Shown: positions 4,247 to 34,650, counted from the stretch's first letter. The stretch is 64,000 nucleotides of DNA from a virus (IMGVR_UViG_3300029044_000314:88108-152107), one strand, 5' to 3'. Program-made: numbers and translations. The notes: generated by a model not told the origin, from the sequence alone.

Positions 4247-5272
4247 TCAGTTCCCGTCGGCCACGCATTGCGTGAGGAACGACTTCGTTTCGGCTTTTTC
4301 CCAACTGCTCATGGACAGTTTGTACTTGTCTTTGATGTACACGCGTTTAGCCATATACGAGCATTGGTACGTCTTGTTGGACGGGAGCCAAATGCTGGGC
4401 GTTGCGTCCTTCCACTTGGTCGAGGAACCGTTCAACGCCTCGTCCTTAACAAGGTTCACGCCCTGCTGTTTGATGTTGTTCGCTTCTCCTTCGGACGCGA
4501 CGAGCACTTCCGGGTCGTTCGCATAGGTGATGCGGTCGCCCTTGCGCGAGTCCTTCCACAGTCCGCTGGCCCAAGCGTCGTTGACAGCCACCACATGGTC
4601 GATTTGGACGGCCATGCTGTCTCCGCCTGTTTTCTTCTGTTTGCCGTTGACGGTCTCGTAGGTGTCGCGCTGGAATTTGATGGCATTGCCTGTATATGGG
4701 TCTTGGAGGGTGCCGGTGAGCACCTTGCAGTTCTTGTCCATGGTCACGTCGGTCATGTCGCGTTTGAGGATGTAGTCGCGGGTGGTGCCGTATCCGCAGA
4801 GCTGGTTGCTGTTCTGCCATGTGCCGAAGTCGGTTTTGCGATTGTATCCTTTGGTGTGCGGGGTTGCGGTTTCGATGTCAGCGAGTTTGTCAAGCGCCTG
4901 TTTCGTGCTGATAGGGCTTAAAGCACCTTCAGGAACGCTTGTGGAGGCTTTTTGTGCTTGACTTGAGGAATTGTCCCCATTTTGTGTCTGCGTCGTTTCT
5001 GAGGGCGTTTCTGCGGCTTCTGGAGTATTGGTTTGCGAATTGGAGCCGGACGACTTCAAGGAAGGCTCCTTCAACCCTAATTTCACATCCGGCTTCACCT
5101 TGGAATCCTCACCCGGCATCAACTGGGATAGACTGTTGATTTCCGGCAATCCGAAAATCTTCGACATGGGAGTCCACAATCCAAGATTCACGATGAGCAC
5201 CATGGCCGTCAACACGACCAGAATGCCGCCAAGCAGGGAACCGGCGGACATTCCGCCTTTCTTCTTAGCCAT
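4247..5272 (-). CDS. membrane-anchored secreted HNH/His-Me-finger nuclease (DUF1524-like)
   Basis: N-terminal TM anchor, S/T/Q-rich linker, C-terminal domain with VQIDHVVAVNDAWASG...WLPSN...YMAKRVYIKDKY typical of the actinobacterial DUF1524 (GmrSD C-terminal-like) family. Confidence 0.55.
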   Translation of the reverse strand: MAKKKGGMSAGSLLGGILVVLTAMVLIVNLGLWTPMSKIFGLPEINSLSQLMPGEDSKVKPDVKLGLKEPSLKSSGSNSQTNTPEAAETPSETTQTQNGDNSSSQAQKASTSVPEGALSPISTKQALDKLADIETATPHTKGYNRKTDFGTWQNSNQLCGYGTTRDYILKRDMTDVTMDKNCKVLTGTLQDPYTGNAIKFQRDTYETVNGKQKKTGGDSMAVQIDHVVAVNDAWASGLWKDSRKGDRITYANDPEVLVASEGEANNIKQQGVNLVKDEALNGSSTKWKDATPSIWLPSNKTYQCSYMAKRVYIKDKYKLSMSSWEKAETKSFLTQCVADGN

Positions 5273-5447
5273 AGGAAACCTCCAAAAAATCTCATCACAG
5301 GTTCAAGATGATGCTGATGACGAGACACACGATGAACGCGATGGCGATAATCGCACCGGTCAACGGGCCATTGCTGTTGATGAACTCAGCGAACTTGTCA
5401 CCCTCACTGGGCTTGTTATGTCCTGTCAATTTAGTTTTCCTTTCGGA

Positions 5448-6728
5448 TTAGTCGTTCGGCCCCTCATTGGGGTCGCCGGTTACGGAACCGTCATCGGAAT
5501 TCTGGGATGAACTACTGCCGTTGTTGTCGGACGAATCCGAATCGGAGGAGTCGGAATCGTCATTGTCGGAACCGTCATCACCGGAACCGCTATCGGAATC
5601 CGATGAACTGGAATCGGAAGAATCATCATCGTCATCACTGCTGGAAGAGCCAATCAGCGAACGGTCGATGGCATTGCTGAACGCCTTCAACGTGGTCAGA
5701 CTGCCTTCGGCACCCCAGTCAACGATTTTCGCGCTACCACGGGTCGGATTATGGATGAGGACGGTGACGCTCGTCTCCACGTCGCTCGTTGAACCAGTGT
5801 CCGCGTTCGGGTCGTTGGCCGTGCTTGCATCAACCTTCTTCTCGTAGGGTTTGAACGAGATGCTGACGCTCGCCGCCGCCCATTCGGGATTGTCGGACTT
5901 GTTCTGCTTGTCAACGGTCTTGCCGTCCTTGGTGCATTGCACAAGCCAGTCGAGGGACGAGTTCAGATAAGAACCCAAGCTTGCGGGTTGATACATGTGG
6001 TCGCTGTTCGGGTCTCCGACAAGAACCGTCAAAGCGTTGGAGTCTTTGCCGATGTATGCTTTAGACCAAGCGCTGACCACGTTTGTCAGGCTCGTGTTCT
6101 GGTCAAGCTGAATGTAATCGTCGGGACGGTACGTGTCCGTATTGCTGTTCGAAGTGACGGTCTTTGGAAGCACGGTCGGCGTTCCCACCGCAGTAGCCAC
6201 ACCATCGGTGACGGCGACAAGCTGGGTGATATCCCTCGTACTTCCATCCGACTTATCGGTGAGGGACATCTGATGACTCCAATACTGGGTGGTGGAACCG
6301 TTGGAATCGTCCGAAGTGGATGTGCTGACCTCGGTGGCACCATTCCACCATAGGTTCGCATACCCGTATTGGAAAGCGCCCTTGTCATCATCCAGCCAAC
6401 TGTACACGGCTTGCAATGCGACCTGCTTGCCGGGCTTGTCGCCGCTGATTTCCTTGTACTTCTCCGTCAGGTAGGAACCCATTTCGTTCAACGTGTTGAT
6501 TGCGCGGACGGAAATCATCGGGGCGACCAGACCGGTGCAGATGAACAGGATGATGAGAACCTTCCACTTCTGGGTGTTCTTCAACGCCTTCTTCCACGCG
6601 GTGAGTTCTATCTCGTCCTTGCGTTCTTTTTCGTCGGCGAACAGGTCGGTCTCATTGTTCGGGTTCTGCTTCGCCTTCTGCTGTCCCATCGGCTGTTTGC
6701 CGTTCTTGTCTTTCTTGCTTCCGAACAC
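5448..6728 (-). CDS. membrane-anchored protein with Ser/Asp-rich C-terminal tail (possible VirB8/TcpC-like transfer protein)
   Basis: 426 aa; one N-terminal TM; two soluble domains; ~70-aa S/D low-complexity C-terminus; function inferred from context only. Confidence 0.4.
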   Translation of the reverse strand: MFGSKKDKNGKQPMGQQKAKQNPNNETDLFADEKERKDEIELTAWKKALKNTQKWKVLIILFICTGLVAPMISVRAINTLNEMGSYLTEKYKEISGDKPGKQVALQAVYSWLDDDKGAFQYGYANLWWNGATEVSTSTSDDSNGSTTQYWSHQMSLTDKSDGSTRDITQLVAVTDGVATAVGTPTVLPKTVTSNSNTDTYRPDDYIQLDQNTSLTNVVSAWSKAYIGKDSNALTVLVGDPNSDHMYQPASLGSYLNSSLDWLVQCTKDGKTVDKQNKSDNPEWAAASVSISFKPYEKKVDASTANDPNADTGSTSDVETSVTVLIHNPTRGSAKIVDWGAEGSLTTLKAFSNAIDRSLIGSSSSDDDDDSSDSSSSDSDSGSGDDGSDNDDSDSSDSDSSDNNGSSSSQNSDDGSVTGDPNEGPND

Positions 6729-6989
6729 AGTCCCGCTCCGAATCCGTTTTTCGTCTGACTTGCATCCTCCAGTCTACCGTTCATCGGAGGTTGATTTCAC
6801 CGTCTTCGAGGTTTTCAGAAAAGTGTCCGCCGCCGGTGTCGGCTTCTCTGTTTTTCTTTTTCCGGAACTTTTCTTTTTCTCTCTTCCTTCGAAAGCATTC
6901 GGACATGCCTAAACGTTCACGTTGACCTGATTTTTCTAAAAGCATTGAGGATACCCCTAAGCGGGTTTAGACCTGCCCAAACATGGAAT

Positions 6990-7080
6990 CCGAAAAATGG
7001 TTTTATTCTGATTTTTGATTTTTTTGCTTCTTTTTGAAAAAACCTGTTTTTTGAAAAAGAAGGGAATATAAGGGTTATTA
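6990..7080. repeat. AT-rich tract (candidate DNA-unwinding element)
   Basis: Local AT content far above the window background (ttttattctgatttttgatttttttgcttctttttgaaaaaa...), directly next to the direct repeats and the rep gene. Confidence 0.45.
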
Positions 7081-7081
7081 A

Positions 7082-7110
7082 TACCTTTTGTAACCTTTTG
7101 TAACCTTTTG
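7082..7110. repeat. 3x 10-bp direct repeat (taaccttttg)
   Basis: taccttttg taaccttttg taaccttttg; spacing is one helical turn. Confidence 0.6.
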
Positions 7111-7151
7111 CGGCGCTGAAACCCCTTGTGGCAGTAGGACTGAGGGCACTT

Positions 7152-7214
7152 TTTGGTGGGAAAAGTCCACACTTTGGTGGGAAAAGTCCACACTTTGGTG
7201 GGAAAAGTCCACAC
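7152..7214. repeat. 3x 21-bp perfect direct repeats (iterons)
   Basis: tttggtgggaaaagtccacac repeated three times in tandem, about 150 bp from the 3' end of the putative rep gene. Confidence 0.7.
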
Positions 7215-7365
7215 TAGAAAATATGCAAAAATACATGCCGTGAATAAAAAATCAAAATATTTGAAGCCTTTTTTAAATGGCATTTTCTCGAATTGGAACT
7301 TTCGACACAGAAAGTCGGAAGAAGTGGAACCATTTCTTCCATTCCTACTATCGCCCACGCTTCCG

Positions 7366-8355
7366 TCAAAAAGGATTAGCGGCATTCCTTATATCATCTG
7401 TCGATGAATCATTTTGTCCCGAATTGCATGAGACATCCGCTTTGATTACATGTCCGTCGCAGGAACCCGATTCTTCTTTCACAACAACAGCGTCCACAAT
7501 CTTGCCGTTGGAATGAATGGACGAAATGCTCGGATAGACGGTTATGCCATATTCATCAAGACTTGCCTTCAATTCAGGCCATGATTCCTTGACTTTGTTC
7601 AAGGCTGTCGTGAATCGTCTTTTGAATTCTTTGACCGGATAGTCGCCGTCCTCGAACTGAACGGTTAGGTCTTTCCACGGGACTTTCATTCCGCACGAGC
7701 GTAACTTATTTGTTCGGAAAGCCAACCACATGTAAATATCCAAAGCGAGTGCAGAATTAGATATGTTCCTGATAATGGACATTTGAGCAGGAACGGCTTC
7801 CTCTATTAGCAGAGACCACATTTGAGAGGAGAACGTAATATAGGATTCCTTATCCTCGCCGCCAAAATCAATGCATACTTTCTGCGCTACCGGGAAACTC
7901 TCATACATGCCGCTATCATCCGAAACCCAATGTTCCAATGTTATATGGGTGCAAGCAAGATTCTTGATTGACTCAAGGAGAAGACGTTTGCTTTTCCCAC
8001 CAGTGGAAGCACCCATCGCTTCACACATGGCACGATAGCTTCCTCCAAGGTTCACAGTCATGCTTTCGAAATCGACCCGAGAGTCTTTGTTTTTAATCAA
8101 AGTACGAATGTAAAGAAGAAACAATCGGGGCACAGAACCATACGACCACTTACCTTCAGTCGGAGTGATGATGATTGCGGAACGCCCGTTGGTCTTCTTG
8201 ATGTAATTCACGTCAGGTTTGCGTGCGGGAAAGAAACTGAGCTGGGACATCACGGAGGGAGCATACCGATAACTGTCACTGTCGATAGGTCTGATAGAAT
8301 TACCCATGTAACCACTTTCCTTAAGCCTCTGGTTGCCCTGCCCCGGCTGTTCCAC
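7366..8355 (-). CDS. rep: plasmid replication initiator protein (iteron-type Rep, winged-helix)
   Basis: 329 aa; adjacent iterons and AT-rich tract; sequence has the general character of RepA/Rep_3-type initiators; a partition pair lies directly upstream. Confidence 0.5.
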   Translation of the reverse strand: MEQPGQGNQRLKESGYMGNSIRPIDSDSYRYAPSVMSQLSFFPARKPDVNYIKKTNGRSAIIITPTEGKWSYGSVPRLFLLYIRTLIKNKDSRVDFESMTVNLGGSYRAMCEAMGASTGGKSKRLLLESIKNLACTHITLEHWVSDDSGMYESFPVAQKVCIDFGGEDKESYITFSSQMWSLLIEEAVPAQMSIIRNISNSALALDIYMWLAFRTNKLRSCGMKVPWKDLTVQFEDGDYPVKEFKRRFTTALNKVKESWPELKASLDEYGITVYPSISSIHSNGKIVDAVVVKEESGSCDGHVIKADVSCNSGQNDSSTDDIRNAANPF

Positions 8356-8558
8356 CAGCGCGGGGCTTTTGCTTTTCTATCGGCAAGCCTACACCATAAC
8401 CACCTCAGCATATATGTAAAGAACCTTTTTACTGCGGAAACAAAAAAAATCTTCCCGCGTTAGAAAAACCAATGGGGCGTACGCTCTAATATGAGCGCCG
8501 CCCCATCTGGAAGACTCTGGGAGTCTTTTTGTTCATCCGAATATCAGTATACCGGAGC

Positions 8559-9014
8559 CTAATCCTTCTGCTCGTACTTGTCGATGAGCGTCTGGTCGAA
8601 GTGCCCCTGCTGGAAGCAGTAATCCATCGCGGCATTCAACAATACAGCCTGCTTCGTCCCGTATTCGATGCTTCTCATCTTCCACGCACGCCAGTTTTCG
8701 ACGGTGACGTTGCTGCCGATTCTTTTCTCTTTCGGCGGCTGATGCGTTTCGGATGGTGCCGATGTTTCAGGATGGGTTATGTCGGTGATGAGCCGTGCCC
8801 GACGGTCGGCTTCTTCCTCCGTGAGCGTTTGGGCATGCATGTCGGCGGACGTTTGGACTGACTGGTCTGACGGTTCCCGCGTTTCAGGAACGGCCTGTGT
8901 CGGTTCCTGCTCCGTGTTCGGTTCGCTAATGTTTTCCGGTGATTCCAATGGGCGCATGTCACGCTTGTCCTGCATTCCGGTTGCGAAAGCGTTGCGTTTG
9001 ATGTTCTTGACCAT
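8559..9014 (-). CDS. small partition partner / centromere-binding protein (ParB/ParG-like)
   Basis: 151 aa, acidic N-terminal region, C-terminal helix-rich domain; immediately downstream of parA in the same operon. Confidence 0.35.
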   Translation of the reverse strand: MVKNIKRNAFATGMQDKRDMRPLESPENISEPNTEQEPTQAVPETREPSDQSVQTSADMHAQTLTEEEADRRARLITDITHPETSAPSETHQPPKEKRIGSNVTVENWRAWKMRSIEYGTKQAVLLNAAMDYCFQQGHFDQTLIDKYEQKD

Positions 9015-9044
9015 GATTGCCTACTTACTCCCCTGCTCCTGTTT

Positions 9045-9749
9045 TTATTCTTCCACCAGATTGATTTCAGACAGATAGTCGATGAGTTCCTGCACGACGC
9101 TGGAATATTCCTTGTTGTCGATTTCGGTTGTGCCGTACATGTTCTTGACGGCTTCACGTTCCGTGATGACGGTTTCGAACCGTGCGATGCCTTCCTCATC
9201 CAGTTCGCTGATGCTGTTCCGGGCGAGTTTCGTTCTCGGCTTCACGCGTGTCAACAGGACGATGCCGTTGCGTGCCGCCGCGTATGTGCGTCCCGCGTGG
9301 GTCAAATCGGATACGGATGGCTGGCATGGGATTATCACCACGTCGCCCGCGTTTATCGCCGCCTGTACCACTCCCGCGTCGGACGGTGGGGTGTCGATGA
9401 TGACCCAGCCTGAATATTTTTCGCGGATGAGTTCCGGATTGTTCAATACGGCTTCGTTGGTTTGCACGACGGGGAAGCCGAGCGTGTATGGTTTCGCGTC
9501 CGGATTGTCCTGTCTGCGTCTGCGGTTTTCCTGTTCGACGTACATTTCCCACATGGTCGCGCCGCCCGTGTTGTCGGAGTCCAAGACTGTGACTTGTTCC
9601 CCGCGTTTGTGCAATAGTTCGGCCAATGCCATTGATGTGGTTGTTTTTCCTGAACCGCCTTTGATGATTGCGACGGTGATGATGACCGTATGGTTTTTGA
9701 CTCTCATGTTCTGGTTTCCTTTTTCTGCTTCCGGTGTGGACGGAATCAT
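9045..9749 (-). CDS. parA: ParA-family partition ATPase
   Basis: Deviant Walker A KGGSGKTT; ParA/MinD-like length and layout; true start may be the internal MRVKNHTV. Confidence 0.75.
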   Translation of the reverse strand: MIPSTPEAEKGNQNMRVKNHTVIITVAIIKGGSGKTTTSMALAELLHKRGEQVTVLDSDNTGGATMWEMYVEQENRRRRQDNPDAKPYTLGFPVVQTNEAVLNNPELIREKYSGWVIIDTPPSDAGVVQAAINAGDVVIIPCQPSVSDLTHAGRTYAAARNGIVLLTRVKPRTKLARNSISELDEEGIARFETVITEREAVKNMYGTTEIDNKEYSSVVQELIDYLSEINLVEE

Positions 9750-9867
9750 GGTGGGGGTATGTTTTTTTGTTTCGATGATAACAACGGCGAAAAGTCGGCA
9801 CGCCGAACTGGAAAACCGTTCGGAGAAACATTCCAGTAAAACAATGGAACGGCGTACAGGTTTACAG

Positions 9868-10384: not shown

Positions 10385-13300
10385 TCACTTCATGAACGGC
10401 GGTTTGGGTGTCGGCTGTCCTCCGGTCGGCGGTTTCTTCATACGAAGATTGCCTACGGAGGGGAAACCTGTCAGGTTTGACGGGTTGGCGTCCACCGGCT
10501 GTTTGACGGTCGGGGAAGGTGTGGTTGGCGGTTGCATTCGAACCGACGGCTGTTGTCTTACCTGAGCTTGTGGCTGCGGTTGAGACTGCTGTCGCGGAGC
10601 TTGCGCCTGTACCGAACCCTGCTGTTGCGTCTGCCCGGAATCCACCGTGAATTTTCTACTCGGCTGAATTCCATTCGGGTTCATAGCCCGTTCGGCACCC
10701 GACGGCATCGTAGACCCCGGCAGTCCGGTCGTCGCGGTCCATTCCTCCTGAGCCATCCGCAAATGCTCCTCCGGAGACTGTTGCACCGGATTCTCGCGCA
10801 TGTACGCCTGTTGCAGTGAATTGTTCACCGATTCAGGCATCGGAGTCGCATTGTCGGTTGCCTTCTGCCAAGTGGAGGCGGAGGACACGGCGGCGTCCAT
10901 CGTTCCGGAGGGTAGGGTCTCACCAACAATCTCACCTGTCTCAGTGTTGTACACCGGCTGGTTGGCGTTCGTTTCGGGTTGAGCTGTCGCATTCTCATTA
11001 GGAGATTGATTGTTCTGGCGCATGTACGCTTGGACGGAATTATCGACTTCACCGGAGGAGACGGCCTCTTGGAACGCTTGTTCCGCTTCTTCTTGGGACA
11101 TGTGCTGGTTATCCACGAAGTCGGCCATCATTCCCTCACGAACCTGATTGAACGCGGACTGTTCGGTCAACACCGGAGCCTGTCCTTGAGCGTCGGCTGG
11201 AACCGATTCAGTTGGAGTGTCCACCGGAATCGTTTCCGTCTGACCGTCAGTCGGAATCGTCTCGGTCTGACCGTCAGTCGGAATAGGCGACGCGCCACCG
11301 GCACCACCGGTTTGGGTCGGGGCATTCGGAGTCGGAGCCGTCGGGGAAGGCATAGGACTGTCACCATCGGCGGAACCACCGTTACCGGTGCCGGAGAACG
11401 GAGACGACAACGGAGCGTCACCATTAGCCATGCCCAACACGTCGCGACGCCACTGGTCGCGTTTCCTCATACTGCCGGGAGCAGCGTTCCTGATGTCGCG
11501 GATTTTGTCCATCGCGGCTCCCGCACCCACCGCTAGGCCATGATGGAGGTTACGGTCGGTAGCTAGCTTTCCTGCGGCAATCAATCCCAACGGTGCGGTA
11601 ATCGGATTGGAGAACAAAGCTCCTGCGACAGCGGCTTTCGCGGCGACCTTCGCTCCGCGTGCGGCTACGTTACGCAAAGGAGCGCTCTTCGCGGCTCGTG
11701 CGGCGAAAGCGAGACCGGCACCGGCCATTGCGGCTCCGGCTCCGGCGACTCTTGCCGCGCCTTGAAGTTTGCGTCCGGCATTGTTCAGATGGTTCATCCT
11801 TTGTGCTTTGCGTTGCACATCGTTGAGGGACATGCCCGGGTGACGTTGAGCGATACTATGGGCGAACGCCTCCGTATTGTCCTCTCCATGGAACTTGGAA
11901 ACGGCTTCGTTCAACCGTCCCTTGAACTTGCCCGTGGAATCCTCAAAATGGAGTTTCGTACCGGCAAGACTTCCTCTCACCGTGCTCTTGTCCATTCGTG
12001 CCCAGTTCTTGCTTCCGCGTCCACGCGTCTGAATCGCCTCGAACTCCTTGGCGTTACGATTCATCAGATTCCTATCGCCCTGACTCAACGAATCCTGTTG
12101 CGCGCGGCTCATCTTGCTCAGGACGGTCGCGCTTTGACGTGCTCCGTTATGGGCCATGCCAGCGCCGGTACCGTTCGTGGACAAACGTCCGACACCATTG
12201 CCGCCACGACGGAATCCGCCACGCATGGCGCGAATCATACGGTACTGTCCAATCATGTGCATTCCCTTGCGAAGACCGGACGCCATTGCGGTTCCACCCG
12301 CCATTCCCATGAGAGCGTTGACGCTGAACGGATTACCACACTTCAACACTTTCGAACAGAACATGCCGATTGCGGCGAGAGCCAACACCGGACTCAATCC
12401 CGCAATCAACTGGTAGGTGAACGAACCACTGCTGGCAGAGGTGAACTTCAACGTCAGGCCACAAATGAATGTTGCGAGAGCGCCGAGCGCACCGTACAAC
12501 GCTCCTACCATACTCAACTGGCAGGTGTACGTCGCCCAGTTCTTCAACGCCGTCTTCGGCTTCTCGCCAATCGGGAACGCTTGGACAAGGAACGTGACCA
12601 CGAGGAACAACGCCATCATTATCAGCATGAGCTTCGTCAGTATTAGAACAAGGCTCAACAATCCCCAGACCACGAGATTGACGATGCCTCCGATAAGTGT
12701 TCCGCAAGCACCCAACGTATCGACGTTGTTGTTGCCATACATGTAGTCGATGGTTTTCTTCGCACCGCCCGTGACCGTGGAATCATCCTGAGCGTCACGA
12801 AGATTCGCCTCACTCCAAGTTCCGGAAACGTTCGGCACGTCGAAACGCCATCCGACCGTGGCGGAGTCGCCCCAGTTGGTGTCGTTCTGCTGGTCTTTAT
12901 ATGTTCCGTCATCCTCCTTGTTGATATCGGTGGAACGGGAGAAGATTACGGAACCCTGTTTGAGAATCGTCTGGCAGACCGAAGTGGCCTGTTGGATGGT
13001 TTCGTCTTCGCTGCCGTTCTGTTTCGCGTCCATCACGCCTTTGCCACCGTTGGTCGGTTTCACATTGTCCAAGTCGTCAATTTTGACGCGTACTTTCGTA
13101 CTGCCGTTCTTGATGTTCTTGGTTCCTGTGTCACCGAGATTGTTGATGAGTGTCGCCCATCCGGCTCGCGCGTAGATTTCCTGATTGCGTTTCGTGCCAC
13201 AGGTTTCCCAGAACACGCCCGCACGGCTGAGATATGTCGCGTTCTCCCTTTCCAACGGCTTGTCGGTGAAGTAAGGATTACGCGGGTCTACCCAACCGTC

Positions 13301-18647: not shown

Positions 18648-19761
18648 CCCAACCCCAATCCTTCTTTATGATGTCTCGCGTCACGTCCCAACCCCATTCG
18701 CTGACTTTGCGAACGTCACGAACCTGCGGAGTATATTGCGCCCACTCGTCGGAGAAAATGTTGCGTCGTGTTCCACTCATATCCGTATAGTCACCGAACC
18801 TGTCGGTCGGCATCCCATGCTCGAACCATTCGTCCCAGACCGCGATTCCCATTCGTTGCGACACGGTAGGATTGCCCACGACCATTTCCGTCATGCCTTG
18901 CGTGCGTTGTACCACCGCGTTGAACGATTCGTAACCTTCGTTTGCCTTCGGTATCTGCAACCATACGCAGATGAGTCCGCGACGCTTCATCGGAGAATAG
19001 GCGAGCATCTTAGCCCAGTTCTGCATCTTCTTATCCAATTCGCTGTTGGACGTTTGGATTTCGATACCCGCCAACACATTGTTCCGGCACAACGTCACCA
19101 CGTCGGTCGCGCAAGCCTTGCCGACCTTCGACTCGGCAACAGCCTGTGGGTCAACGCTACGGAATTTTCCCCAACCATCACCGGATGAGAATTTCACACG
19201 TGAATCGCGTGCCAACATCAATCCCGCGTGCGCCGCATAAGTGTTATGCCGAACATGGAAACGATTCCCCGCGTAATAGGAAACCGCCATCGTCTCACGC
19301 ATCCACTTTTCCATCCCGTACAATTTCATCGCACGGTTGATAAGACGTGGACTGTTCGACGGTGAAAGCCAAACATGATTCACGGTCTGACCGTACAATC
19401 GTTCCGCCTGACTGAAACCGACGTTGATGATTCCCAAACGGTTCATCGCACCATACAGGTTCGGTTCGTCACGTTCGAAAGCGGGAGCGCCTTTGATGGA
19501 AAGTCCCGCACGTAGTTGGTCAACCGTGCATGTCTTCCAAGTGAACAATGCGCCGAGGATACTCGAAACGAGTTCGCTGTTCGCTTTCACCATTGTCTCC
19601 GCGAACAGTTTGTTCGCAACGAACCACGGGTGGGTCTGCGCGAACAATCCGGGATGCTCCATCTCGAACATGTCGTTGCCTTTATACCAGTCGGCAATGC
19701 TTCCGGTCTTCCAAAGATTCTCGTCGTTCGGGTCGAAAAGAAAACGGTCATCGAATGTCAC
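18565..19761 (-). CDS. hypothetical protein
   Basis: 398-aa ORF with ordinary composition, within the transfer operon. Confidence 0.45.
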   Translation of the reverse strand: MTFDDRFLFDPNDENLWKTGSIADWYKGNDMFEMEHPGLFAQTHPWFVANKLFAETMVKANSELVSSILGALFTWKTCTVDQLRAGLSIKGAPAFERDEPNLYGAMNRLGIINVGFSQAERLYGQTVNHVWLSPSNSPRLINRAMKLYGMEKWMRETMAVSYYAGNRFHVRHNTYAAHAGLMLARDSRVKFSSGDGWGKFRSVDPQAVAESKVGKACATDVVTLCRNNVLAGIEIQTSNSELDKKMQNWAKMLAYSPMKRRGLICVWLQIPKANEGYESFNAVVQRTQGMTEMVVGNPTVSQRMGIAVWDEWFEHGMPTDRFGDYTDMSGTRRNIFSDEWAQYTPQVRDVRKVSEWGWDVTRDIIKKDWGWDVSGWTMPEAYRGGFYGFIGKDCDGLH

Positions 19762-20972
19762 TTACGCCCACGACCTTTCTTTCCTTCACTGTTCTTAGCG
19801 TTCGGATTGAATCTTTCCGGATTGAAACCACGGTCGGGCAAAGCCCAGTTAAGAATGTTCTCCCTAGCAAAAGCAAGACCGGGGTCATCCCATCTGACAT
19901 CACCGTTGGCGATATGGTTGCTTGCCTCGACCGTCTGATATTCGGTTCCGAGAAACGTTCCGTATCTCGTATAGTCGAGTCGTCTGTAACCTTGCAGTCC
20001 GACCGGAACGGTGTCCTTGATTCCGATGAGTTCCTTCGGAAGATGATGCTCAGCCAAGGCCGTCAGCAGATTCAACGCGTCTATCTGCGTCTGCCTTCCA
20101 GCCTTGACGATAACCAGACAAGGGTCTCCCGATTGAATGTATGGAAGCAGTAAACCGTTGGCGATATTCTCCCTATCATCCAAATCGTCCGCGCTGATTC
20201 GGTCAAGGTCGAGCACGACGAAATCCCACAGTCGGCGTGCCGCTTGGATGTACTGACGGTATATCTGCCAGTCCACTCCGACGCCTGCTGGAGGTGCGAA
20301 ACAGATGTCGTATGGAACCCCAAGGTCACGTCCTCGATTGGCTCCGACCTGCACCTGCATGCCCGGTCGCCAGTCGGCTATCGTATGCAATGGCTTGTCC
20401 TGTCTCGGGTCGAAAAAACTACGTTGACTGGACTGTCTGATGTTGCCGTCGATGAGCAGAACACGCAATCCGGCTTGCGACGCACGGTCTGCCAACTGTC
20501 GGCTGGACGTGGTCTTCCCCACTCCTCCGGTGTTGGATGTGATGGGTAGGAGAACCGCAGTCTCCTTCACTTTGTTTTGGAGGATATCGACTACGAGACG
20601 CTTGTCCGCAAGCTGGATTCCCCAATAAGTCCGTGCGAAATCAGCCACGCTCATGCGTAACATCTGTTCGCTCATGCCCATGGCTCCGACCGGTATCTGA
20701 CCGGTGTTGCACCAGTAGACCATGTATCCGGCGTTGGCTATCGGAAGCCAGTTTCCAGCCCTGTCAGTGAAGATGATTCCCTTGAACCCGGAGGGCACCG
20801 GATGTCTTACCAGATAGTCGGCCTGTGCTTGAATATTGTCTGCGGCGGGCACCTGCCAACGCATGTTTCCAGCTCTCGTAAGGGCCTTTTTGATGGTTGT
20901 GAGAAGCCCTCCGGAGCCGATTATCAGGGAAATCGTTCGTTTTTCCAATAAGACCGCCTCCTGATGGGTCAT
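19758..20972 (-). CDS. CpaE/TadZ-like ParA/MinD-family ATPase with N-terminal receiver-like domain
   Basis: 404 aa; deviant Walker A SNTGGVGKTT at about residue 150, preceded by a ~140-aa pseudo-receiver-like region; first gene of the leftward operon. Confidence 0.55.
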   Translation of the reverse strand: MTHQEAVLLEKRTISLIIGSGGLLTTIKKALTRAGNMRWQVPAADNIQAQADYLVRHPVPSGFKGIIFTDRAGNWLPIANAGYMVYWCNTGQIPVGAMGMSEQMLRMSVADFARTYWGIQLADKRLVVDILQNKVKETAVLLPITSNTGGVGKTTSSRQLADRASQAGLRVLLIDGNIRQSSQRSFFDPRQDKPLHTIADWRPGMQVQVGANRGRDLGVPYDICFAPPAGVGVDWQIYRQYIQAARRLWDFVVLDLDRISADDLDDRENIANGLLLPYIQSGDPCLVIVKAGRQTQIDALNLLTALAEHHLPKELIGIKDTVPVGLQGYRRLDYTRYGTFLGTEYQTVEASNHIANGDVRWDDPGLAFARENILNWALPDRGFNPERFNPNAKNSEGKKGRGRK

Positions 20973-21039
20973 GTTCCGTTGTTTTCATCGGAACGTTTAC
21001 GGTTTTGTCCGAGTTCTGGCATTTATAGTTTTTTGATAT

Positions 21040-21760
21040 TTAGTTTTTTGTTGGTTTTGCTGTTGCTTTTTTCATTGCATTGGCTGTTCCTGTATTGATG
21101 TTACCTTGTTTTGATTGTCGTTGACCTTGTTAGTGAGACTATTGACCTTTTTGTTGTTTTTGTTGTTGTAGTGGCTGTTGGTTGTTGTTTGTGCTGGTGC
21201 TGGTGCTGGTGCTTGACCTGTTGCCTTGTGGTGCTGTTGCTTGGCTTTTCTTGTTTCTTGGGGTGTTTGGTGCTGTTGTTCTTCTGTTTTGTATGCCATA
21301 TGGGTTGATGTGCTGTTCCTTTGTGGATGGTTGCGTTGCTTCTGTTGTTTTCATACGTTGTATTCCCGATTTAGGGGTAGGTGTTTCTTCTTTTATTGTC
21401 CTGTTCTTCTGTTGCTTCTATTTGATTAAGATTGCTGCTCTTATATTCTCCTTTTCTTCCTTTTGGTTTTTCTTTTCTTTCTGATTTTCTTGGTTATTCT
21501 TTTTTGATGTGATGGTGTTTGGTTTCTTTTTCTGATTTTTTGGTGGGTAGTGCTTCCTTTCTTTTAGTCTTTTTGATTTTTGGTTTTTCTCTTTTTTTTT
21601 GAGTCTGCTATTCATGTTGACCTACCGGCGTGGACTGGATGGTTTTCATGTTTTTTTTCTGATAATGGTCGGGTGTTGTTCCTTTTTTCATATTTGTTGG
21701 GGACTCTTTTTGGTTCCGCTTTTCTGTTGGAACTACCGGCGCGGGCGGCGCGGGGAATTG
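21040..21760. other. strand-skewed low-complexity region (T/G-rich, A-poor on the plus strand) in a divergent intergenic region
   Basis: About 700 bp with very few A on the plus strand; (tggtgc)x4 microsatellite at 21191-21214; minus-strand ORFs here encode K/N/Q-rich peptides. Confidence 0.6.
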
Positions 21761-21875
21761 TTTTTCCCGTTTTCCCCGTTTAGGGATGCTGTCGGGCGTT
21801 ACACTCGTGAATTGAAAATACAGAACACCTCGTTCCGACTGTTAACAGCCTGTACGACCGGAGTGTTCGCTGGAT

Positions 21876-22598
21876 ATGACGAAAGAAGGTATGATGCCAG
21901 ACTTCACCAATTGGGGATTCAACAACAACCAGCAGTCGGAGCAGGACAATGGTTACGGTTCCGACAATTATGCTGAACCGGAGCAGTCTTCTGTCGAGGA
22001 GTCGCAGACGGAATCCGATTCTCTTAATCAGGAGAGTTCGGAGCCTGTCTCTGACGTGTCCGCACCGGCTGATGGTGAGGATGTGAACGTGGACGCTGAG
22101 TCCACTGAAACCGAAGACAAGCCGAGGGGGAAGGGTAAGGGCCGTTCTAATCGCAAACCGCGTGAGAAGACCATGCCGCACATCGAGGAACAGTTCGGCA
22201 AGAAGCTGATTCCTCTTGTCAAATCGTTGGATGACGAGCGTGTGGTTTCTCTCGCCAAGGCGTTGACTGATACGAAGAAGAGCACTCCGGAAGCAGTGCT
22301 GGACGCATTGACTGAGCCGAAGAACCAACGTCGAATCTCTGAGTTCGCGTCCGCGTTGGAAGGGTTGGCTACAGCCGAGCCGGGCATGATTGCCGCAGAG
22401 GTGACGTTGGTGTTCGCGCAGGGCAAGGATATGACCAACCTGCTGTTCTCCGTGCTGAACGCGGTCGCGCCGGAGAAGAATTTCGGACGTCCGGTTGACG
22501 ACCAGTCTCCTGCCGGAATGCGTAAGAACCTGAGCAAGATTGTCGATAATTGGGGTGACGGTGTTGACCTTTCCGTTATCGATGAGCTGAAAATCTGA
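21876..22598 (+). CDS. acidic hypothetical protein
   Basis: 240 aa; D/E/S-rich N-terminal half, basic patch KPRGKGKGRSNRKPREK. Confidence 0.5.
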   Translation: MTKEGMMPDFTNWGFNNNQQSEQDNGYGSDNYAEPEQSSVEESQTESDSLNQESSEPVSDVSAPADGEDVNVDAESTETEDKPRGKGKGRSNRKPREKTMPHIEEQFGKKLIPLVKSLDDERVVSLAKALTDTKKSTPEAVLDALTEPKNQRRISEFASALEGLATAEPGMIAAEVTLVFAQGKDMTNLLFSVLNAVAPEKNFGRPVDDQSPAGMRKNLSKIVDNWGDGVDLSVIDELKI

Positions 22599-27145: not shown

Positions 27146-27730
27146 ATGGTCGAAGACACCGTTTGCACCATCGGCGTATATGGTGGCCGACAACCGTCCA
27201 TACTCGTCAATAACCATCTCGTCTACGGTCGGATGCCCGACTCCGAAACCCAGCCGGACATCATCGCGGACGTTCCGAAGAACAGGCTCGTTGCCAACCT
27301 CAACCCAGCCTCCGACGGCATGACGGACAGTCCCAGACTTCCGTTGGAACTGTTCGCCGCATGGCTCGCCAACGGTGACGTGGGCCTCAGCTCGCTCGCC
27401 ATCGTCCAACGGCTCACCGGAATCACAATGACCGTGAACGTCACGCGCGAACATGGTTGCGAGGATACTCCGAAAGACCCCGGAGACCTACGTCGGATAC
27501 TCGGAATGTTCGACATGGTGCCATCCGCACGCGCCTATCTGAGTCTCATGCGCGACGTGTCGGAAGACTGGAAGAACATCATCGACCATTGGGATGAACT
27601 TGAAAAACAGTATCGGCAAGAGGAACACAATCCATCCGGTTGCGCTCCAAAAAACCTACCGGATGCTGAAACGATTGAAGGAAGGAAACCGTGCCTAATA
27701 AAGACATCAAAACCGAACCACGGTTCATGA
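27146..27730 (+). CDS. hypothetical protein
   Basis: 194-aa ORF. Confidence 0.45.
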   Translation: MVEDTVCTIGVYGGRQPSILVNNHLVYGRMPDSETQPDIIADVPKNRLVANLNPASDGMTDSPRLPLELFAAWLANGDVGLSSLAIVQRLTGITMTVNVTREHGCEDTPKDPGDLRRILGMFDMVPSARAYLSLMRDVSEDWKNIIDHWDELEKQYRQEEHNPSGCAPKNLPDAETIEGRKPCLIKTSKPNHGS

Positions 27731-29454
27731 CCATGATTCAAAAAGACCTCCAGCCAGTATGCAAGGCGTTGAATCTCGACGTTGACCCGTTCGCCAACGC
27801 GCGAACCGTGTTCATCGACCGTGACAGCGTAGGACGGATTCTCTCCTACATGAGCGACCATGAAATCAACCCCGAATGGTACAGCCTACTGCCTGATAAT
27901 CTGTTCGTCGGAACCGGACTGCCAGTCCTCACCGGCGTCGAAGGAGAATACTTCGCCCGTATGACCGGACGGAACCTCACCAAGAAAGTCGCGGCGAAAA
28001 CATTCATCGCGGATATGGAAGCCTACTGGCTGAGCAAAGACAATCTGAAACGGACTGACGGTACGAAAAGCAGCGGAACCACGCTCGGTTTCGGACGTTG
28101 CCCCGGACTACGCGAAGTCAGCCGATACAACGAACGCATCTTCAAAAACAACGAATACGAGTACACGAACCCCGTGGACGAGTATGGCATCGACACGGTT
28201 TCACGCTACCGTCAGGTCGGTGAAATCTACAATGAGGTCGGCCAATGCTTCAAGGGAATGGCACAGGCGCGTACTCCCCTCGCACCATTCGTCTTCCTTA
28301 CCCATAAGGAATACGAGGGCGGACTGGACACGGTTGTGAACCACTGCCCATACATCACCCATTCGGACGCCACCCGCATCATCGACGGAATGAAACAGTT
28401 CCCTCCGAAACGAAGCGTGGACAGGTTCATGCTCGCGTTCACCATGACCGCGTTCGCGTTCGCCATGAATCAGGTCGAGGAATCCGAACAGTACGAGACG
28501 GTCGAAGTGAAACCACCGAAAACCGAAATCAGACGGCATTCCGGCGCTCCGAAAACCACGTTGCTCATCCATTTGAAACTGGAAGAGCCAGCACCCAAGG
28601 CCACGCCATCCTACGCCGGTGAAACCGACGAATACGATTGGGACAGCATCACCGGACGGGTCGAAACCATCACCCCGGACGTTGCCAAGGAAATGCTCGG
28701 CGTGAACACCAACAACCGCAACGTGAGCCGCACACAGGTCGAACTGTTCGCCCGAACCATGGCGCAGAAGGCTTGGAAAATGAACGGCGAAGCCATCAAA
28801 TTCAGCAACACGGGACGCTTGTTGGACGGACAGCACAGGCTCCTCGCATGCGTCGAATCCGGTGTTCCGTTCCGCACTCTGGTCATTCGCGGACTGCCCG
28901 AAGACACGCAGGAGACCATGGATGCAGGCAAGAGCCGCACCATGGCTAACGTGCTCGAACTGAAAGGCCGTAACAACGCCAAACAGCTTTCCACCGTGGC
29001 CCGTTCCATCTATCTGAGCGAACAGTTGGGTGTGGAAGCCGCATGCGTCAACAACATGTCACCGACCCGAAATGAACTGCTGACGTTCATCGAAAGCACT
29101 CCGCAATTGGAGGATACGCTACGACAGGCCAGCACGTTCTACACGAAAAGCAATCATCTCATGTCCACCAGCATGGCCGCGCTCCTCTACTGGACGTTCA
29201 ACGAAATCGACGGTGAGGCGTGCGAACGGTTCTTCGACATGCTCGCCTCCGGCGCTAACCTTGACGAGGGAAGCCCCATTCTCGTACTCCGCAACACGCT
29301 GTTCGACATCAACAAGCGTGGAGCGCACAGCGACCGTCCAACCCGCCGACGCATCGTCGGAATCACCATCAAAGCGTGGAACAAATGGCGTGAGGGAGCG
29401 ACTGTGAAACTCCTCAAATTCTCTCCGAACGAACAGTTCCCGGACGCAATCTGA
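27691..29454 (+). CDS. ParB/Srx-fold (DGQHR-type) domain protein
   Basis: 587 aa; C-terminal half contains KFSNTGRLLDGQHRLLACVESGVPFRTLVIRGL, matching the ParB-like nuclease / DGQHR motif family; N-terminal ~270 aa unknown. Confidence 0.5.
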   Translation: MPNKDIKTEPRFMTMIQKDLQPVCKALNLDVDPFANARTVFIDRDSVGRILSYMSDHEINPEWYSLLPDNLFVGTGLPVLTGVEGEYFARMTGRNLTKKVAAKTFIADMEAYWLSKDNLKRTDGTKSSGTTLGFGRCPGLREVSRYNERIFKNNEYEYTNPVDEYGIDTVSRYRQVGEIYNEVGQCFKGMAQARTPLAPFVFLTHKEYEGGLDTVVNHCPYITHSDATRIIDGMKQFPPKRSVDRFMLAFTMTAFAFAMNQVEESEQYETVEVKPPKTEIRRHSGAPKTTLLIHLKLEEPAPKATPSYAGETDEYDWDSITGRVETITPDVAKEMLGVNTNNRNVSRTQVELFARTMAQKAWKMNGEAIKFSNTGRLLDGQHRLLACVESGVPFRTLVIRGLPEDTQETMDAGKSRTMANVLELKGRNNAKQLSTVARSIYLSEQLGVEAACVNNMSPTRNELLTFIESTPQLEDTLRQASTFYTKSNHLMSTSMAALLYWTFNEIDGEACERFFDMLASGANLDEGSPILVLRNTLFDINKRGAHSDRPTRRRIVGITIKAWNKWREGATVKLLKFSPNEQFPDAI

Positions 29455-29456
29455 CC

Positions 29457-29855
29457 TTGGAAAGGACGAACAAAAGCATGGTCGAAAAACCGAAAAAACC
29501 GAACACATCCCCGGCGAAGCTTCTGACCGCAGACGAGGCTTTGGCCTTGGGAAGACGACCGGAAGTCGTCAACGTCTTGAAAAACAAGCACGGATGGTGG
29601 GTAATCTTCACCACCCAATTCCAAGACGAAGTGACCCTCCGATATCTGCAAGGGGAACGTCCCTCGGAGATATTCCGCAGTCACAATCTCGGACCGGAAG
29701 TCCTCGGATACAAGCGCATAGAACGTTGCGTATACCGGTGGGTCAACCATCCCAGCAAATCCCGTGTCAAACGTTGGCAAACGGAACACCGCCTGTATGA
29801 GACGTTGAACAAGAATCAGACCAACACCGGCAAGAAGGAGAACAACGACAAGTGA
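29457..29855 (+). CDS. basic hypothetical protein
   Basis: 132-aa ORF coupled to dnaB (stop/start overlap). Confidence 0.4.
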   Translation: MERTNKSMVEKPKKPNTSPAKLLTADEALALGRRPEVVNVLKNKHGWWVIFTTQFQDEVTLRYLQGERPSEIFRSHNLGPEVLGYKRIERCVYRWVNHPSKSRVKRWQTEHRLYETLNKNQTNTGKKENNDK

Positions 29856-31192
29856 GCGTCCCCACACCAATCCACAAGGACATGGCCGAACAAGTGTTGT
29901 TGGGGGCCATGCTTCAAGACGCGGAAACGTTGGACAAGGTCATCAGCCAACTTTCCGAAGAGGACTTCTACCAGCCGACCAACCAGACCATCTTCCATAA
30001 TATAAAGGAACTGGCCGCAGACAATAACCGTGTGGACGCGCAAATGCTGTCCTCGCACATGATGGACAACGGACAGTTGGAACAGGTCGGCGGCATCGAC
30101 TACATCGCCCAGCTTGTCGGCTCCGCGCCCACGTCGAACAACAGTGACTATTTCATCAAGCAGATTCGTGACGCGGCCATCCTCCGCCACATCAACGTGG
30201 TCGGACAGCAGTTGCAACAGATGAGCAACGTGTCCGACGCGTCAGCCGAAGATGTGCTCAGCAAATCGTTGGAGGCCGCGTTCTCGTTGGAGGATTCAAG
30301 CCGTTCCGAAGACGACGAGTTGAAGACCGCATACCGCCTGTCCGACGAAATGCTCCAACAGTTGGATGAAATGTCACAGAATCCGAACGAGTTCGGAACA
30401 CCCACCGGCTTCCGTGACATCGACGCGTTGACGCACGGATTGCAAGCCGGACAAATGGTCATAGTCGCGGGCCGTCCGGGCATGGGCAAGAGTACTCTCG
30501 GCATGGATTTCGCGCGTAACGCCGCACTGCACAAGGGTCTGCCGACTGTGATTTTCAGTCTGGAAATGGGCGGTCACGAACTCATGCAACGCATGTTCGC
30601 AGCCGAAACAGGCATCCGTCTCGCATCGTTCCAACATCCCGAGAATCTGAACTCGAATGATTGGAACAAACTCAACGCGCTCTGCCATCAGGTCGAGAAG
30701 GCACCATTGTGGGTTGATGATTCCGCCATCATCAACATGAGCACCATCCGTGCGAAATGCCGTGCTCTCAGCCGCAAGGTCAACGGGTTGAAGCTTATCG
30801 TCATCGACTACCTGCAACTCATGTCCTCCGGTAAAACCGTCGAGAACCGTCAGCAGGAAGTGTCGAACTTCTCCCGCCAATGCAAAATGCTCGCCAAGGA
30901 ACTGCAATGCCCCGTGGTCGTGCTCTCCCAGTTGAACCGTAATGCGGAACAGCGTGCCGACAAGAAGCCGGAACTGTCCGACCTGAGAGAGTCCGGTTCC
31001 ATCGAACAGGACGCCGACATGGTGTTTCTCGTGCATCGTCCCGAATATTACGACCGTGAGGAACGTCCGGGCGAAGCCGACGTGATTCTCGCCAAGCACC
31101 GTAACGGGCCTACCGAAACGTTCAATCTCGCGTTCATGGGCGAATGCTCCAAATTCGCGGACATGGCCGCAGGTTTCGAAAACGAGTTCTGA
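29852..31192 (+). CDS. dnaB: replicative DNA helicase DnaB
   Basis: 446 aa; N-terminal domain LLGAMLQD, Walker A AGRPGMGKST, LIVIDYLQLM, SQLNRNAEQRADKKPELSDLRESGSIEQDADMV. Confidence 0.9.
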   Translation: MSVPTPIHKDMAEQVLLGAMLQDAETLDKVISQLSEEDFYQPTNQTIFHNIKELAADNNRVDAQMLSSHMMDNGQLEQVGGIDYIAQLVGSAPTSNNSDYFIKQIRDAAILRHINVVGQQLQQMSNVSDASAEDVLSKSLEAAFSLEDSSRSEDDELKTAYRLSDEMLQQLDEMSQNPNEFGTPTGFRDIDALTHGLQAGQMVIVAGRPGMGKSTLGMDFARNAALHKGLPTVIFSLEMGGHELMQRMFAAETGIRLASFQHPENLNSNDWNKLNALCHQVEKAPLWVDDSAIINMSTIRAKCRALSRKVNGLKLIVIDYLQLMSSGKTVENRQQEVSNFSRQCKMLAKELQCPVVVLSQLNRNAEQRADKKPELSDLRESGSIEQDADMVFLVHRPEYYDREERPGEADVILAKHRNGPTETFNLAFMGECSKFADMAAGFENEF

Positions 31193-31243
31193 AACAAGTT
31201 CTGTCATAGTGGGTATGCCCACAAAAAAAGAAAGGAAAAGTCA

Positions 31244-32641
31244 ATGCCAACAACATTGATAATCGTCGCGGCAGTGGCGATACTCATCATCCTGCTCGCA
31301 ACCGCAAGCTACAAGGTCTGCCCCGCCGACCGGGTAATGGTCATCACCGGGCCGGGTGGATGACGCTTCGTCTCCGGCGGAAGCGCGTTCATCATACCCT
31401 TCATCATGCGCGTGGACTGGCTCTCCCTCGGAGCGGTGCAGTCGCTCCTGAGAACCGACACGCCGATTCCGACGAAGGACGCAATCCTCATCGACGTGAA
31501 CGCCGTCGCGAACTTCCAGATAGCGTCCGAGACCATGACCGTGGACGAGAACGGTAAACAGGTGAAGGCGTTGGAGAACGCCGCCAAGAACTATCTGAAC
31601 CAGTCCAAGGAGCGAATGGAGAAGGACGTGACGCAGGTGCTCTTGGGCAAGCTGCGCGAGGTCATCGGCAAGACCGAGTTGAAGGAGCTCATGGAGAACA
31701 GGGACACGTTCGCCGCGACCGTGGCCGAATCCGCCCGCGTGGATATGGAACGGCTTGGCCTTCAATTGACCACGTTCAACATTCAAGACTTCACCGACCG
31801 TCAGAACGTCATCGCCAACATGGGCGCTGAAATGGCCGCCGAAATCAGCCGGAATGCGAAGCTCGCGTCCATCAACGCGGAACAGGATGTGGCCGTCCGT
31901 CAGAACCAGCTCGACCTGAAACGAGCCGAACTCCAATCCATCTCCGACAAGGCGCAGGCCGAGGCCGACGCGGTGAAGGGCATCACCGCCGCCGAACAGT
32001 CCAAAACTCTCAAAGTCAAGGAGCAAGAGGCTGAAATCGCCGCCGCCGAAAAGAAGGCAGTCCTCGAACAGAAGAACGCCGAAATCGAAGAGCAAAAACT
32101 GAACGCGACCATCCGCAAGAAGGCCGACGCCGACCGTTACGCCGCCGAACAGCAGGCCGACGCGCAAATGTACACAACCCAAAAACACGCCGACGCGGAA
32201 CTGTACCTACGCCAGCAGGAGGCTCAGGCCATCCAATCCACAGCCGACGCGGACGCACACGCGACCGAAGTCAAAGGCAAGGCTGAAGGCTCCGCCGCAC
32301 AGGCCAAGGGCGTGGGCGAGGCGGAGGCAATCCGCGCCCAAGGCCGAGCCTACAATGCGATGAACAACACGTACATCCTCGCCCAACAGTACATTCAGAT
32401 TCTCCCCGACATGGTTCGAGCCGCCGCCGAACCGCTCACCAAGGTTGACCACATCACCATGTACGGCGACGGAAACAGCACGAAGCTCGTGGGCGACACG
32501 GTGAACAGTGTGAGCCAGTTGAGTGAGGGATTGTCGCAATCCTTGGGCATCGATTTGAAAGCCTTGCTGAACAGTATGGTGGCCGGTCATGCCGCCGGTT
32601 CCGCATTGAGTGAGAAAGGTTCCGAACAGTCCGGAAACTAG
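31244..32641 (+). pseudogene. flotillin/SPFH (band-7) protein gene interrupted by an in-frame TGA at 31361-31363
   Basis: N-terminal piece MPTTLIIVAAVAILIILLATASYKVCPADRVMVITGPGG, then TGA, then RFVSGGSAFIIPFIMRVDWLSLGAV... in the same frame. This matches the flotillin/YuaG N-terminal TM plus SPFH core; the C-terminal EA-rich coiled-coil and conserved tail are present. Confidence 0.65.
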
Positions 32642-34544: not shown

Positions 34545-34650
34545 GAAAACTTTTCTGACCGTTTGACGGTTGGAAAAGCATGAAATGTTCCGCTTGGCGT
34601 GTCGGGAACCCAAATATCGACACGCCACCTTTTAGATTCTTTATAACCGC

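Follow-up and report, generated by a model that had tools for sequence, protein, structure and literature searches.

The Bifidobacterium megaplasmid pMP7017 carries two paralogues of the RepA_C family, RepA and RepB (Dineen et al. 2021, PMC8313286). RepB is essential, by itself sustains replication, with a copy number of about one per chromosome, and has 17 20-mers downstream together with an AT-rich tract that is required; RepA binds eight upstream repeats cooperatively in electrophoretic mobility shift assays, is autoregulated and is highly conserved (PMC8313286). At the other end of the size range, a working shuttle vector for bifidobacteria, pPKCM7, is driven by the rep region of the small plasmid pCIBA089 (PMC4618763). 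Here, we analysed a replication module within a 64,000-nucleotide stretch of metagenomic DNA (IMGVR_UViG_3300029044_000314:88108-152107, hereafter the window), in which a preliminary description had placed a candidate origin of replication at 6990-9749. We consider it somewhat probable that this locus is a complete RepA_C iteron replicon with a ParA/partner cassette on a circular megaplasmid of the pMP7017 kind of ~215 kb, where it would act as a functional, auxiliary and exchangeable replicon. As judged from sequence comparisons, it appears to be one of at least two RepA-type modules (three in a sibling contig) that accompany a conserved RepB-type replicon.

Results

The initiator-like gene that the preliminary description gave as 329 aa is present as an open reading frame (ORF) of that length when counted from a GTG (7366-8355), and the ATG at 8307, with the Shine-Dalgarno sequence AAGGAAAG, is the likelier start, given that the same 313-aa product is called on eight independent contigs. 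In a hidden Markov model search this product, Rep, matched Pfam RepA_C (PF04796) at 44.9 bits over a cut-off of 26 (E 2e-11, residues 72-220), and relatives occur in 994 PLSDB records, most of the matches listed being annotated RepA. A search of PDB by sequence alone returned no match to Rep. Its AlphaFold2 model, in which the core has a predicted local distance difference test score (pLDDT) of ~85, was matched by Foldseek to domains 2-3 of RctB (E 1.4e-8) and to RepE54 of mini-F and the complex of Rep with single-stranded DNA of the DNA-unwinding element (E 6e-5 to 6e-3), with target-normalised template modelling scores of 0.54-0.60 against monomeric RepE54-type chains. The modelled fold is the two-winged-helix (WH1-WH2) fold of iteron initiators. 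Rep is 38% identical to pMP7017 RepA over 280 aa and 23% identical to pMP7017 RepB, and no second RepA_C gene occurs in the window. Across lineages, the ratio of nonsynonymous to synonymous substitution rates (dN/dS) of rep is 0.09-0.24, indicative of purifying selection, and the adjacent iteron changes at only 2 of its 21 positions between lineages whose rep dS is ~1.2. This combination of a low dN/dS and a near-constant iteron argues that selection maintains the module rather than leaving it to decay as a remnant.

Beside the 3' end of rep lie the repeats and AT-rich DNA that had led to the locus being described as an origin. Tandem Repeats Finder (TRF) recovered the 21-mer TTTGGTGGGAAAAGTCCACAC as 3.0 tandem copies with 100% identity (span 7152-7215), as had been reported, and no further copy with ≤3 mismatches was found in the 64-kb window or in 100 shuffles. 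The three 10-bp repeats that had also been reported survive in part: TRF found a period of 10 with 2.8 copies at 100% (7083-7110), but TAACCTTTTG is exact at 7091 and 7101 only and the first two bases of the third unit, ATACCTTTTG at 7081, deviate from it, so that the repeated core is an 8-bp ACCTTTTG present three times rather than three perfect 10-mers. The AT-rich tract of the earlier account was likewise recovered, with a guanine-plus-cytosine (GC) content of 25% over 6980-7059 and an 80-mer (7003-7082) that ranks second lowest in stability in the window, ~4.4 standard deviations under the mean; it also contains a near-perfect 17-nt palindrome (7027-7062). On the other flank of the 21-mers, the 80-mer at 7214-7293 is the fourth least stable in the window. 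The locus holds what is expected of an iteron origin, namely an array of direct repeats in the ~17-22-bp class adjoining an easily melted AT-rich region. Between the short repeats and the 21-mers there is, in addition, a ~26-nt element, CCCTTGTGGCAGTAGGACTGAGGGCA, which occurs once in the window, where 0.03 matches would be expected by chance.

To place these features in context, IMG/VR was scanned with a RepA_C alignment and then with a RepB-type alignment (loci are designated L001, L004 and so on). One layout is common to every RepA-type paralog examined (the window type, paralogs 2 and 3, the types termed 33%, 45% and L040, pMP7017 RepA and pCIBAO89): an AT tract, three 8-11-bp repeats, the ~26-nt element, direct repeats, a second AT tract, two leader hairpins and rep. 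In modules other than that of the window, the second AT tract separates the iterons from the rep leader. The direct repeats number three to eight and are spaced at 21 bp with a sequence specific to each paralog, and irrespective of that sequence the ~26-nt element, CCCTTRTGGSAGTAGGNCTNAG, is found in either orientation beside every one of these paralogs; it was not found at RepB-type loci. In pMP7017 the element forms the middle of the '35-bp palindrome' that lies upstream of repA, and in pCIBAO89 that of a perfect palindrome. Its dyad symmetry is strong in these two plasmids and in the L040 type and has decayed in the window type, and because symmetry is so inconsistently kept we favour an asymmetric protein site over an obligatory hairpin, a candidate that was dropped since the pairing is not conserved across modules. 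Identity of the element with the published 34-bp promoter motif of pMP7017 was also considered and rejected, the two sequences being unrelated.

Exchange of whole cassettes ties the 21-mers to Rep. Contigs that encode an identical partner protein (P0034) split into those with a 95%-identical window-type Rep and window-type 21-mers and those with an alternative cassette, comprising a 49%-identical Rep in the opposite orientation and unrelated repeats, GTTGGTGAAAGTGGAAC. This swap (L162) leaves the conserved element, short repeats and AT tract unchanged. Since the arrays switch with Rep under an identical partner, and since paralogs that lack par genes have arrays as well, the 21-mers belong to Rep and not to partition, and we infer from these sequence comparisons that they are the cognate iterons of the adjacent Rep. 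The exchange occupies a fixed slot that extends from the par genes to the AT tract (L162 4586-5700 and the L166 cassette against L161/L164 4741-5990), with a breakpoint at, or close to, the conserved element. Whereas the array lies upstream of rep in 76%-identical relatives, the window lineage has rep in inverted orientation relative to it, and because a perfect array is thus found 1.1 kb from the rep promoter the iterons are not solely an operator. Three iterons are present in 26 of 32 loci, two in three loci, and four to at least five in the 86% lineage (copy variation and contigs ending in the array were seen in the contig ends of L011, L012, L013, L014 and L017 and in L004, L005 and L009); many short-read contigs stop inside the array, which makes it an assembly breakpoint. 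Separately, the coding sequence of rep contains a 12-nt stretch on the minus strand (7991-8002) that reproduces the iteron core, TGGTGGGAAAAG, exactly. We discarded it as a candidate operator because it is not kept in 86% and 76% relatives whose iterons retain the core, and it is probably a chance occurrence.

The start of rep is overlapped on the opposite strand by a candidate antisense RNA. Its predicted fold comprises a first stem-loop (8308-8336) that carries the anti-Shine-Dalgarno sequence in its upper part and a second, GC-rich hairpin (8340-8366) followed by a U-run (8367-8376), with a minimum free energy (MFE) of -26.5 kcal/mol and a z-score of -3.9 relative to shuffled sequences. Among 11 diverged RepA-type leaders, 10 have MFE folds with two hairpins and a U-run as well, even though the stem sequences differ (equivalent leaders: L001, L013, L040, L041, L054, L070, L103, L104, L162 and L190), the exception being L054, which keeps the terminator hairpin with a different 5' part. 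A promoter-like sequence, CTGTCA-16-TGnTAGAAT, lies just inside rep on the plus strand (8273-8300). No Rfam family matched at E up to 1 over 6700-8600, and the pMP7017 transcriptome paper makes no mention of a countertranscript over the rep start. Together, the folding and its recurrence suggest a countertranscript that would limit translation of Rep; alternatively, this stretch, read on the minus strand, could serve as a structured sense leader of rep. The candidate rep promoter would yield a leader of ~80 nt, comparable to that of pMP7017 repA, which has been mapped at 71 nt (PMC8313286). Further upstream, the GC hairpin formed by ATGGGGCG and CGCCCCAT, which is also kept in L162, is likely a terminator that parts par from rep.

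In agreement with the preliminary description, a ParA gene and a small partner gene lie directly upstream of rep on the same strand, in the minus-strand order parA, partner, rep. ParA exceeds the cut-offs of Pfam AAA_31, CbiA, MipZ and ParA, scores 106.9 bits against NCBIfam ParA_partition (under the cut-off of 180) and matches PHROG 164 (ParA-like) at E 1e-31; it has no N-terminal DNA-binding domain, as is the case for type Ib proteins. An alignment of 16 homologues of the partner protein revealed a conserved 27-aa N-terminal peptide and a conserved ~58-aa C-terminal domain joined by a variable Pro/Gln-rich linker. Such a layout of tail, linker and domain is typical of small centromere-binding proteins, and its position and domain layout are what mark the partner as a putative member of this group. 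Searches of Pfam, NCBIfam, PHROG and PDB with the partner sequence gave no match, and its AlphaFold2 model has a pLDDT of 53, at which the Foldseek matches are meaningless; in this low-confidence model, which has no significant fold match, two to three helices after an extended segment at the C-terminus are compatible with a ribbon-helix-helix fold. On either side of the parA-partner pair, the flanking DNA contains weak short repeats only.

The module is carried by an abundant large element. The Rep sequence has exact matches in 818 indexed blocks of the assembly collection and is 100% identical on hundreds of contigs, the longest of which are 206-225 kb, and because rep sits at varying positions and orientations on these long contigs they would represent one circular molecule of ~215 kb. 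The best PLSDB protein matches of Rep and of the DnaB encoded in the window are pMP7017-type Bifidobacterium megaplasmids (36-54% identity), with other Actinomycetota plasmids as runners-up for DnaB, and this nearest kinship of the core genes, together with the long contigs, bears out the earlier claim that the DNA is extrachromosomal rather than chromosomal. Core proteins are just 36-56% identical to described members of the pMP7017 family and, by this measure, the element is a distant relative of the pMP7017 megaplasmids and not a described member. Megablast of 6900-9800 against PLSDB gave no match, neither Rep peptides nor the iteron pattern found a match among GTDB species genomes, and no description of the megaplasmid was found in the literature searched. 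A sibling plasmid in which Rep is 95% identical and the same three iterons are present occurs in assembly GCA_008916865.1 (contig SKEC01000027.1, 175,642 bp, L164). IMG/VR lists the contigs as viral, but we rejected a phage identity given that the 49 ORFs of the window include no capsid, portal, terminase or tail family; the same database also includes a contig of 140 kb whose encoded RepB is identical to the pMP7017 protein.

Further replication modules are found on the same plasmid. Contig IMGVR_UViG_3300029338_000174 (217,099 bp) encodes the window-type Rep at ~50.3-51.3 kb, a RepA-type paralog (36% identity) at the contig start and, at ~171 kb and hence ~120 kb from the window-type Rep, a RepB-type protein that is 56% identical to pMP7017 RepB; a third RepA-type paralog (37% identity) is found on a sibling contig. 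Downstream of the RepB-type gene, in the region of this contig designated L134, at least 14 irregular ~20-mers (CGTGGMCTWTCRRACACC) occur in both orientations (10966-12215), and upstream of it are nine tRNA genes and a transfer-messenger RNA gene (tag AKTNSSRNFQLAA; 5728-9093), as is the case beside pMP7017 repB. Lineages that differ in the par-adjacent Rep allele share a 100%-identical RepB-type protein, and by these comparisons the RepB-type replicon is most likely the primary origin of the plasmid. Among the RepA-type modules, par genes adjoin that of the window only, paralogs 2 and 3 having none nearby, and the window array is the cleanest, with 100% matches versus 90% and 84% in the two paralogous modules. 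Adjoining the tRNA cluster, we also observed a large tandem array in a low-GC stretch (L134 4531-5340; period 64/193 bp, ~12.6 or 3.9 copies, ~70% matches).

Table 1. Coordinates of the replication module, its counterparts in related loci and other features of the window. Positions refer to the window unless a locus is named.
Feature	Position	Strand	Details and basis
AT-rich tract, candidate DNA-unwinding element	6990..7082	.	GC content and stability ranking
Three short AT-rich repeats, core ACCTTTTG	7081..7110	+	TRF and exact matching
Conserved ~26-nt element CCCTTGTGGCAGTAGGACTGAGGGCA	7123..7148	+	Between short repeats and iterons; paralog comparison
Three perfect 21-bp iterons	7152..7214	+	TRF; candidate sites of the adjacent Rep
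Second AT-rich tract, iterons to rep 3' end	7215..7293	.	Stability ranking
rep, RepA_C-family initiator	7366..8307	-	313 aa; 329 aa with GTG at 8355
Candidate antisense RNA (countertranscript)	8306..8377	+	Covers rep start codon and Shine-Dalgarno sequence; folding
Candidate rep promoter TTTACA-16-TATGGT	8393..8420	-	Consensus scan only
GC hairpin ATGGGGCG...CGCCCCAT	8472..8506	-	8-bp perfect inverted repeat, 3' of partner gene
Small ParA partner	8559..9014	-	151 aa; position beside parA
parA, small Walker-type ATPase	9045..9707	-	220 aa; 234 aa from ATG 9749
Second ParA-like ATPase	19758-20972		
DnaB helicase, plasmid-encoded	29852-31192		
Sortase-type pilins	32821-34515		
RCC1/SdrD-repeat surface protein	35555-40942		1795 aa
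Reverse transcriptase	42865-44094		
repB-type gene	L134 10001-10930		L134 = 3300029338_000174, 160904-181833, reversed
~26-nt element in relatives	L001 5677-5711; L190 131-170; L103 2740; L104 2674		

Beyond the module, the genes listed in Table 1 from dnaB to the reverse transcriptase fall within 27691-44094. The PHROG matches of the 49 pooled ORFs of the window, which were not mapped to individual ORFs, include a DNA polymerase, an exonuclease subunit and a clamp loader. GC content reaches its window-wide minimum (0.417 over 21-22 kb) in the intergenic region at 21000-21900, which separates divergent genes, one encoding the second ParA-like ATPase; the plus strand is extremely biased towards T there (AT skew -0.56). 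Nearer to the module, at ~5000-6000, some near-identical contigs hold ~1.3 kb of extra sequence (L005 13121-14320, L167), an insertion polymorphism at whose site an IS605-family TnpB gene is called in L005.

Discussion

The reading we lean towards, a functional auxiliary replicon, accounts for a complete set of origin-like parts that is kept under selection and within which the rep-plus-iteron cassette is exchanged. In the mechanism we propose by homology with known iteron replicons, the two-winged-helix Rep would bind the three 21-mers, and the resulting nucleoprotein complex would open the AT-rich tract and short repeats with the help of a factor that reads the ~26-nt element. The replicative helicase, possibly the plasmid's own DnaB, would then be loaded. 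The antisense RNA of ~70 nt predicted across the ribosome-binding site of rep would probably limit the supply of Rep, plasmid copies may also be paired by iteron-bound Rep (handcuffing), and ParA together with its partner would segregate the copies.

Several observations weigh against this interpretation. The canonical iteron-replicon architecture put forward in the preliminary description is matched in its layout but not in two of its usual parts: no DnaA box with ≤1 mismatch to TTATCCACA, TTGTCCACA or TTTTACACC was found in 6700-8600, and no iteron-like operator near the rep promoter was found at ≤7/21 mismatches in 8300-8600. The iteron itself holds GTCCACA, which agrees with 7 of 9 positions of a DnaA box and is lost in the iteron variants of relatives. 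At the par locus, neither a centromere site nor a fold for the partner was identified. GC skew, examined in the window and the 7.4 kb to its left, is a weak signal and shows no origin-like cumulative minimum at the locus; within the window the cumulative curve is flat or maximal at 5-12 kb and then falls to ~52 kb regardless of gene orientation, in the 7.4 kb to the left the skew is near zero, and the shift of the plus strand from about neutral to weakly negative skew at ~12 kb is terminus-like if anything. Lastly, pMP7017 RepA is dispensable, a probe vector was not driven by RepA alone and Dineen et al. regarded it as a possible remnant (PMC8313286). This negative replication test was, however, made without trans factors of the plasmid (PMC8313286), and its counterweight is pCIBA089, whose rep region drives pPKCM7 and which therefore indicates that the RepA-type architecture can be an autonomous replicon.

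A serious rival is that the module does not initiate replication and that Rep has been kept in a non-replicative DNA-binding role, as a regulator, a pairing or incompatibility determinant or a partition accessory, with flanks inherited from a captured small plasmid. The properties of pMP7017 RepA, a conserved, autoregulated and cooperative binder that is dispensable and replication-incompetent alone (PMC8313286), speak for it, and the presence of several paralogous modules that are swapped at a fixed slot beside par fits a function in identity or incompatibility. Nevertheless, we regard this explanation as doubtful, given that the AT tracts, short repeats and conserved element are kept in every paralog including pCIBAO89 when a pure regulator would need none of them, that the inversion of rep means the iterons are not its operator, and that the pMP7017 experiment has the limit noted above.

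Less well supported is the view, closest to that of the preliminary description, that the module is the principal or only vegetative origin and that bidirectional theta replication of the ~215-kb element starts here. Its full origin-like anatomy, its status as the sole rep module linked directly to parA and partner, the invariance of Rep on hundreds of contigs and the cleanest array of the three modules are all as this view would have it. We nonetheless consider it distinctly unlikely, and do not retain the earlier designation of the locus as the origin of the element, for the same contig has an orthologue of the verified RepB origin of pMP7017 that is invariant across lineages while the window cassette is swapped, and carries at least one further RepA-type module. 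In addition, the GC-skew analysis that had been suggested as a check, applied to the window and the 7.4 kb to its left, yielded no minimum at the locus, the genes on the right (7.4-21 kb) are oriented toward the site, and pMP7017 RepA is dispensable and insufficient for replication (PMC8313286). The weakest alternative holds that the 21-mers are the centromere (parS) of the small ParA partner and not Rep iterons, and although type Ib centromeres are arrays of direct repeats and the array, the sole one found beside par, lies ≤1.4 kb from the par genes, we judge it highly improbable because the identical partner goes with two unrelated 21-mer arrays, each tied to its own Rep allele, and because 21-bp arrays also occur in paralogous modules that lack par genes in their vicinity. 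The homologous repeats of pMP7017 are, moreover, bound by RepA (PMC8313286).

A bolder extension of the auxiliary-replicon reading, which we offer as speculative and rate as improbable, is that the element is a multi-initiator and possibly multi-origin replicon in which a RepB-type and two to three RepA-type origins, each with its own Rep and antisense RNA, would share a factor acting on the ~26-nt element, where cassettes would recombine. If true, such a plasmid would parallel archaeal chromosomes with several captured origin-initiator pairs. Irrespective of this conjecture, the element conserved across modules, the swapping of cassettes and the candidate antisense RNA go beyond what is ordinary for an iteron locus, and they are found on a megaplasmid that is very common in metagenome assemblies and has no match in PLSDB, a collection of isolate-derived plasmids. 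Knowing which rep module fires would help in building vectors for gut Actinomycetota and in predicting the incompatibility and host range of megaplasmids, and it bears on the question of why pMP7017 RepA is conserved yet dispensable, for which the ~26-nt element and the candidate antisense RNA provide testable handles.

The par genes resemble the type Ib systems ParF/ParG of TP228 and delta/omega of pSM19035 in that a small ParA is followed by a small protein made of a tail and a compact domain; unlike in those systems, the partner has no detectable similarity to a known family or fold and no centromere repeats were identified. With the classical iteron replicons (pSC101, mini-F RepE/ori2, R6K, RK2 and pPS10) and with RctB of Vibrio chromosome 2, the locus shares the two-winged-helix initiator fold, tandem ~20-bp iterons, an AT-rich region with short repeats, ParA-type partition and a setting on a large low-copy replicon. 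The locus departs from them in that neither DnaA boxes nor an inverted half-iteron operator was found, and in its family-specific conserved element, its candidate antisense RNA and the several paralogous modules per replicon. The small Bifidobacterium asteroides plasmid pCIBA089 (pCIBAO89; 2.1 kb), in which a RepA_C rep 27% identical to the window Rep is the only annotated gene, has the same module order, with TATAGGTA in 2.8 copies, a perfect palindrome homologous to the conserved element, at least 2.8 21-bp iterons and the same leader hairpins; it differs in its size, in having no par genes and in the position of rep downstream of the iterons.

pMP7017 itself offers two points of comparison, and like the present element it is a megaplasmid that also holds a RepB-type replicon. 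Its RepB belongs to the same superfamily as the window Rep, and in both cases the iterons lie downstream of the gene, but RepB carries the RepA_C domain towards its C-terminus, its irregular 20-mers occur in both orientations and its locus has no conserved 26-nt element; as the RepB orthologue (56%) is found elsewhere on the same element, the window module is not the counterpart of RepB. pMP7017 RepA, by contrast, is the closest protein to the window Rep for which there are experimental data. Both have the RepA_C domain in the N-terminal two-thirds of the protein, and both genes are accompanied by a triplet of short repeats, a palindrome or conserved element, repeats spaced at 21 bp and a leader hairpin. 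They differ in that pMP7017 repA has eight 15-mers, which overlap its promoter, whereas the window has three 21-mers that lie 3' of an inverted rep, and in that the window module, unlike pMP7017 repA, abuts parA and its partner.

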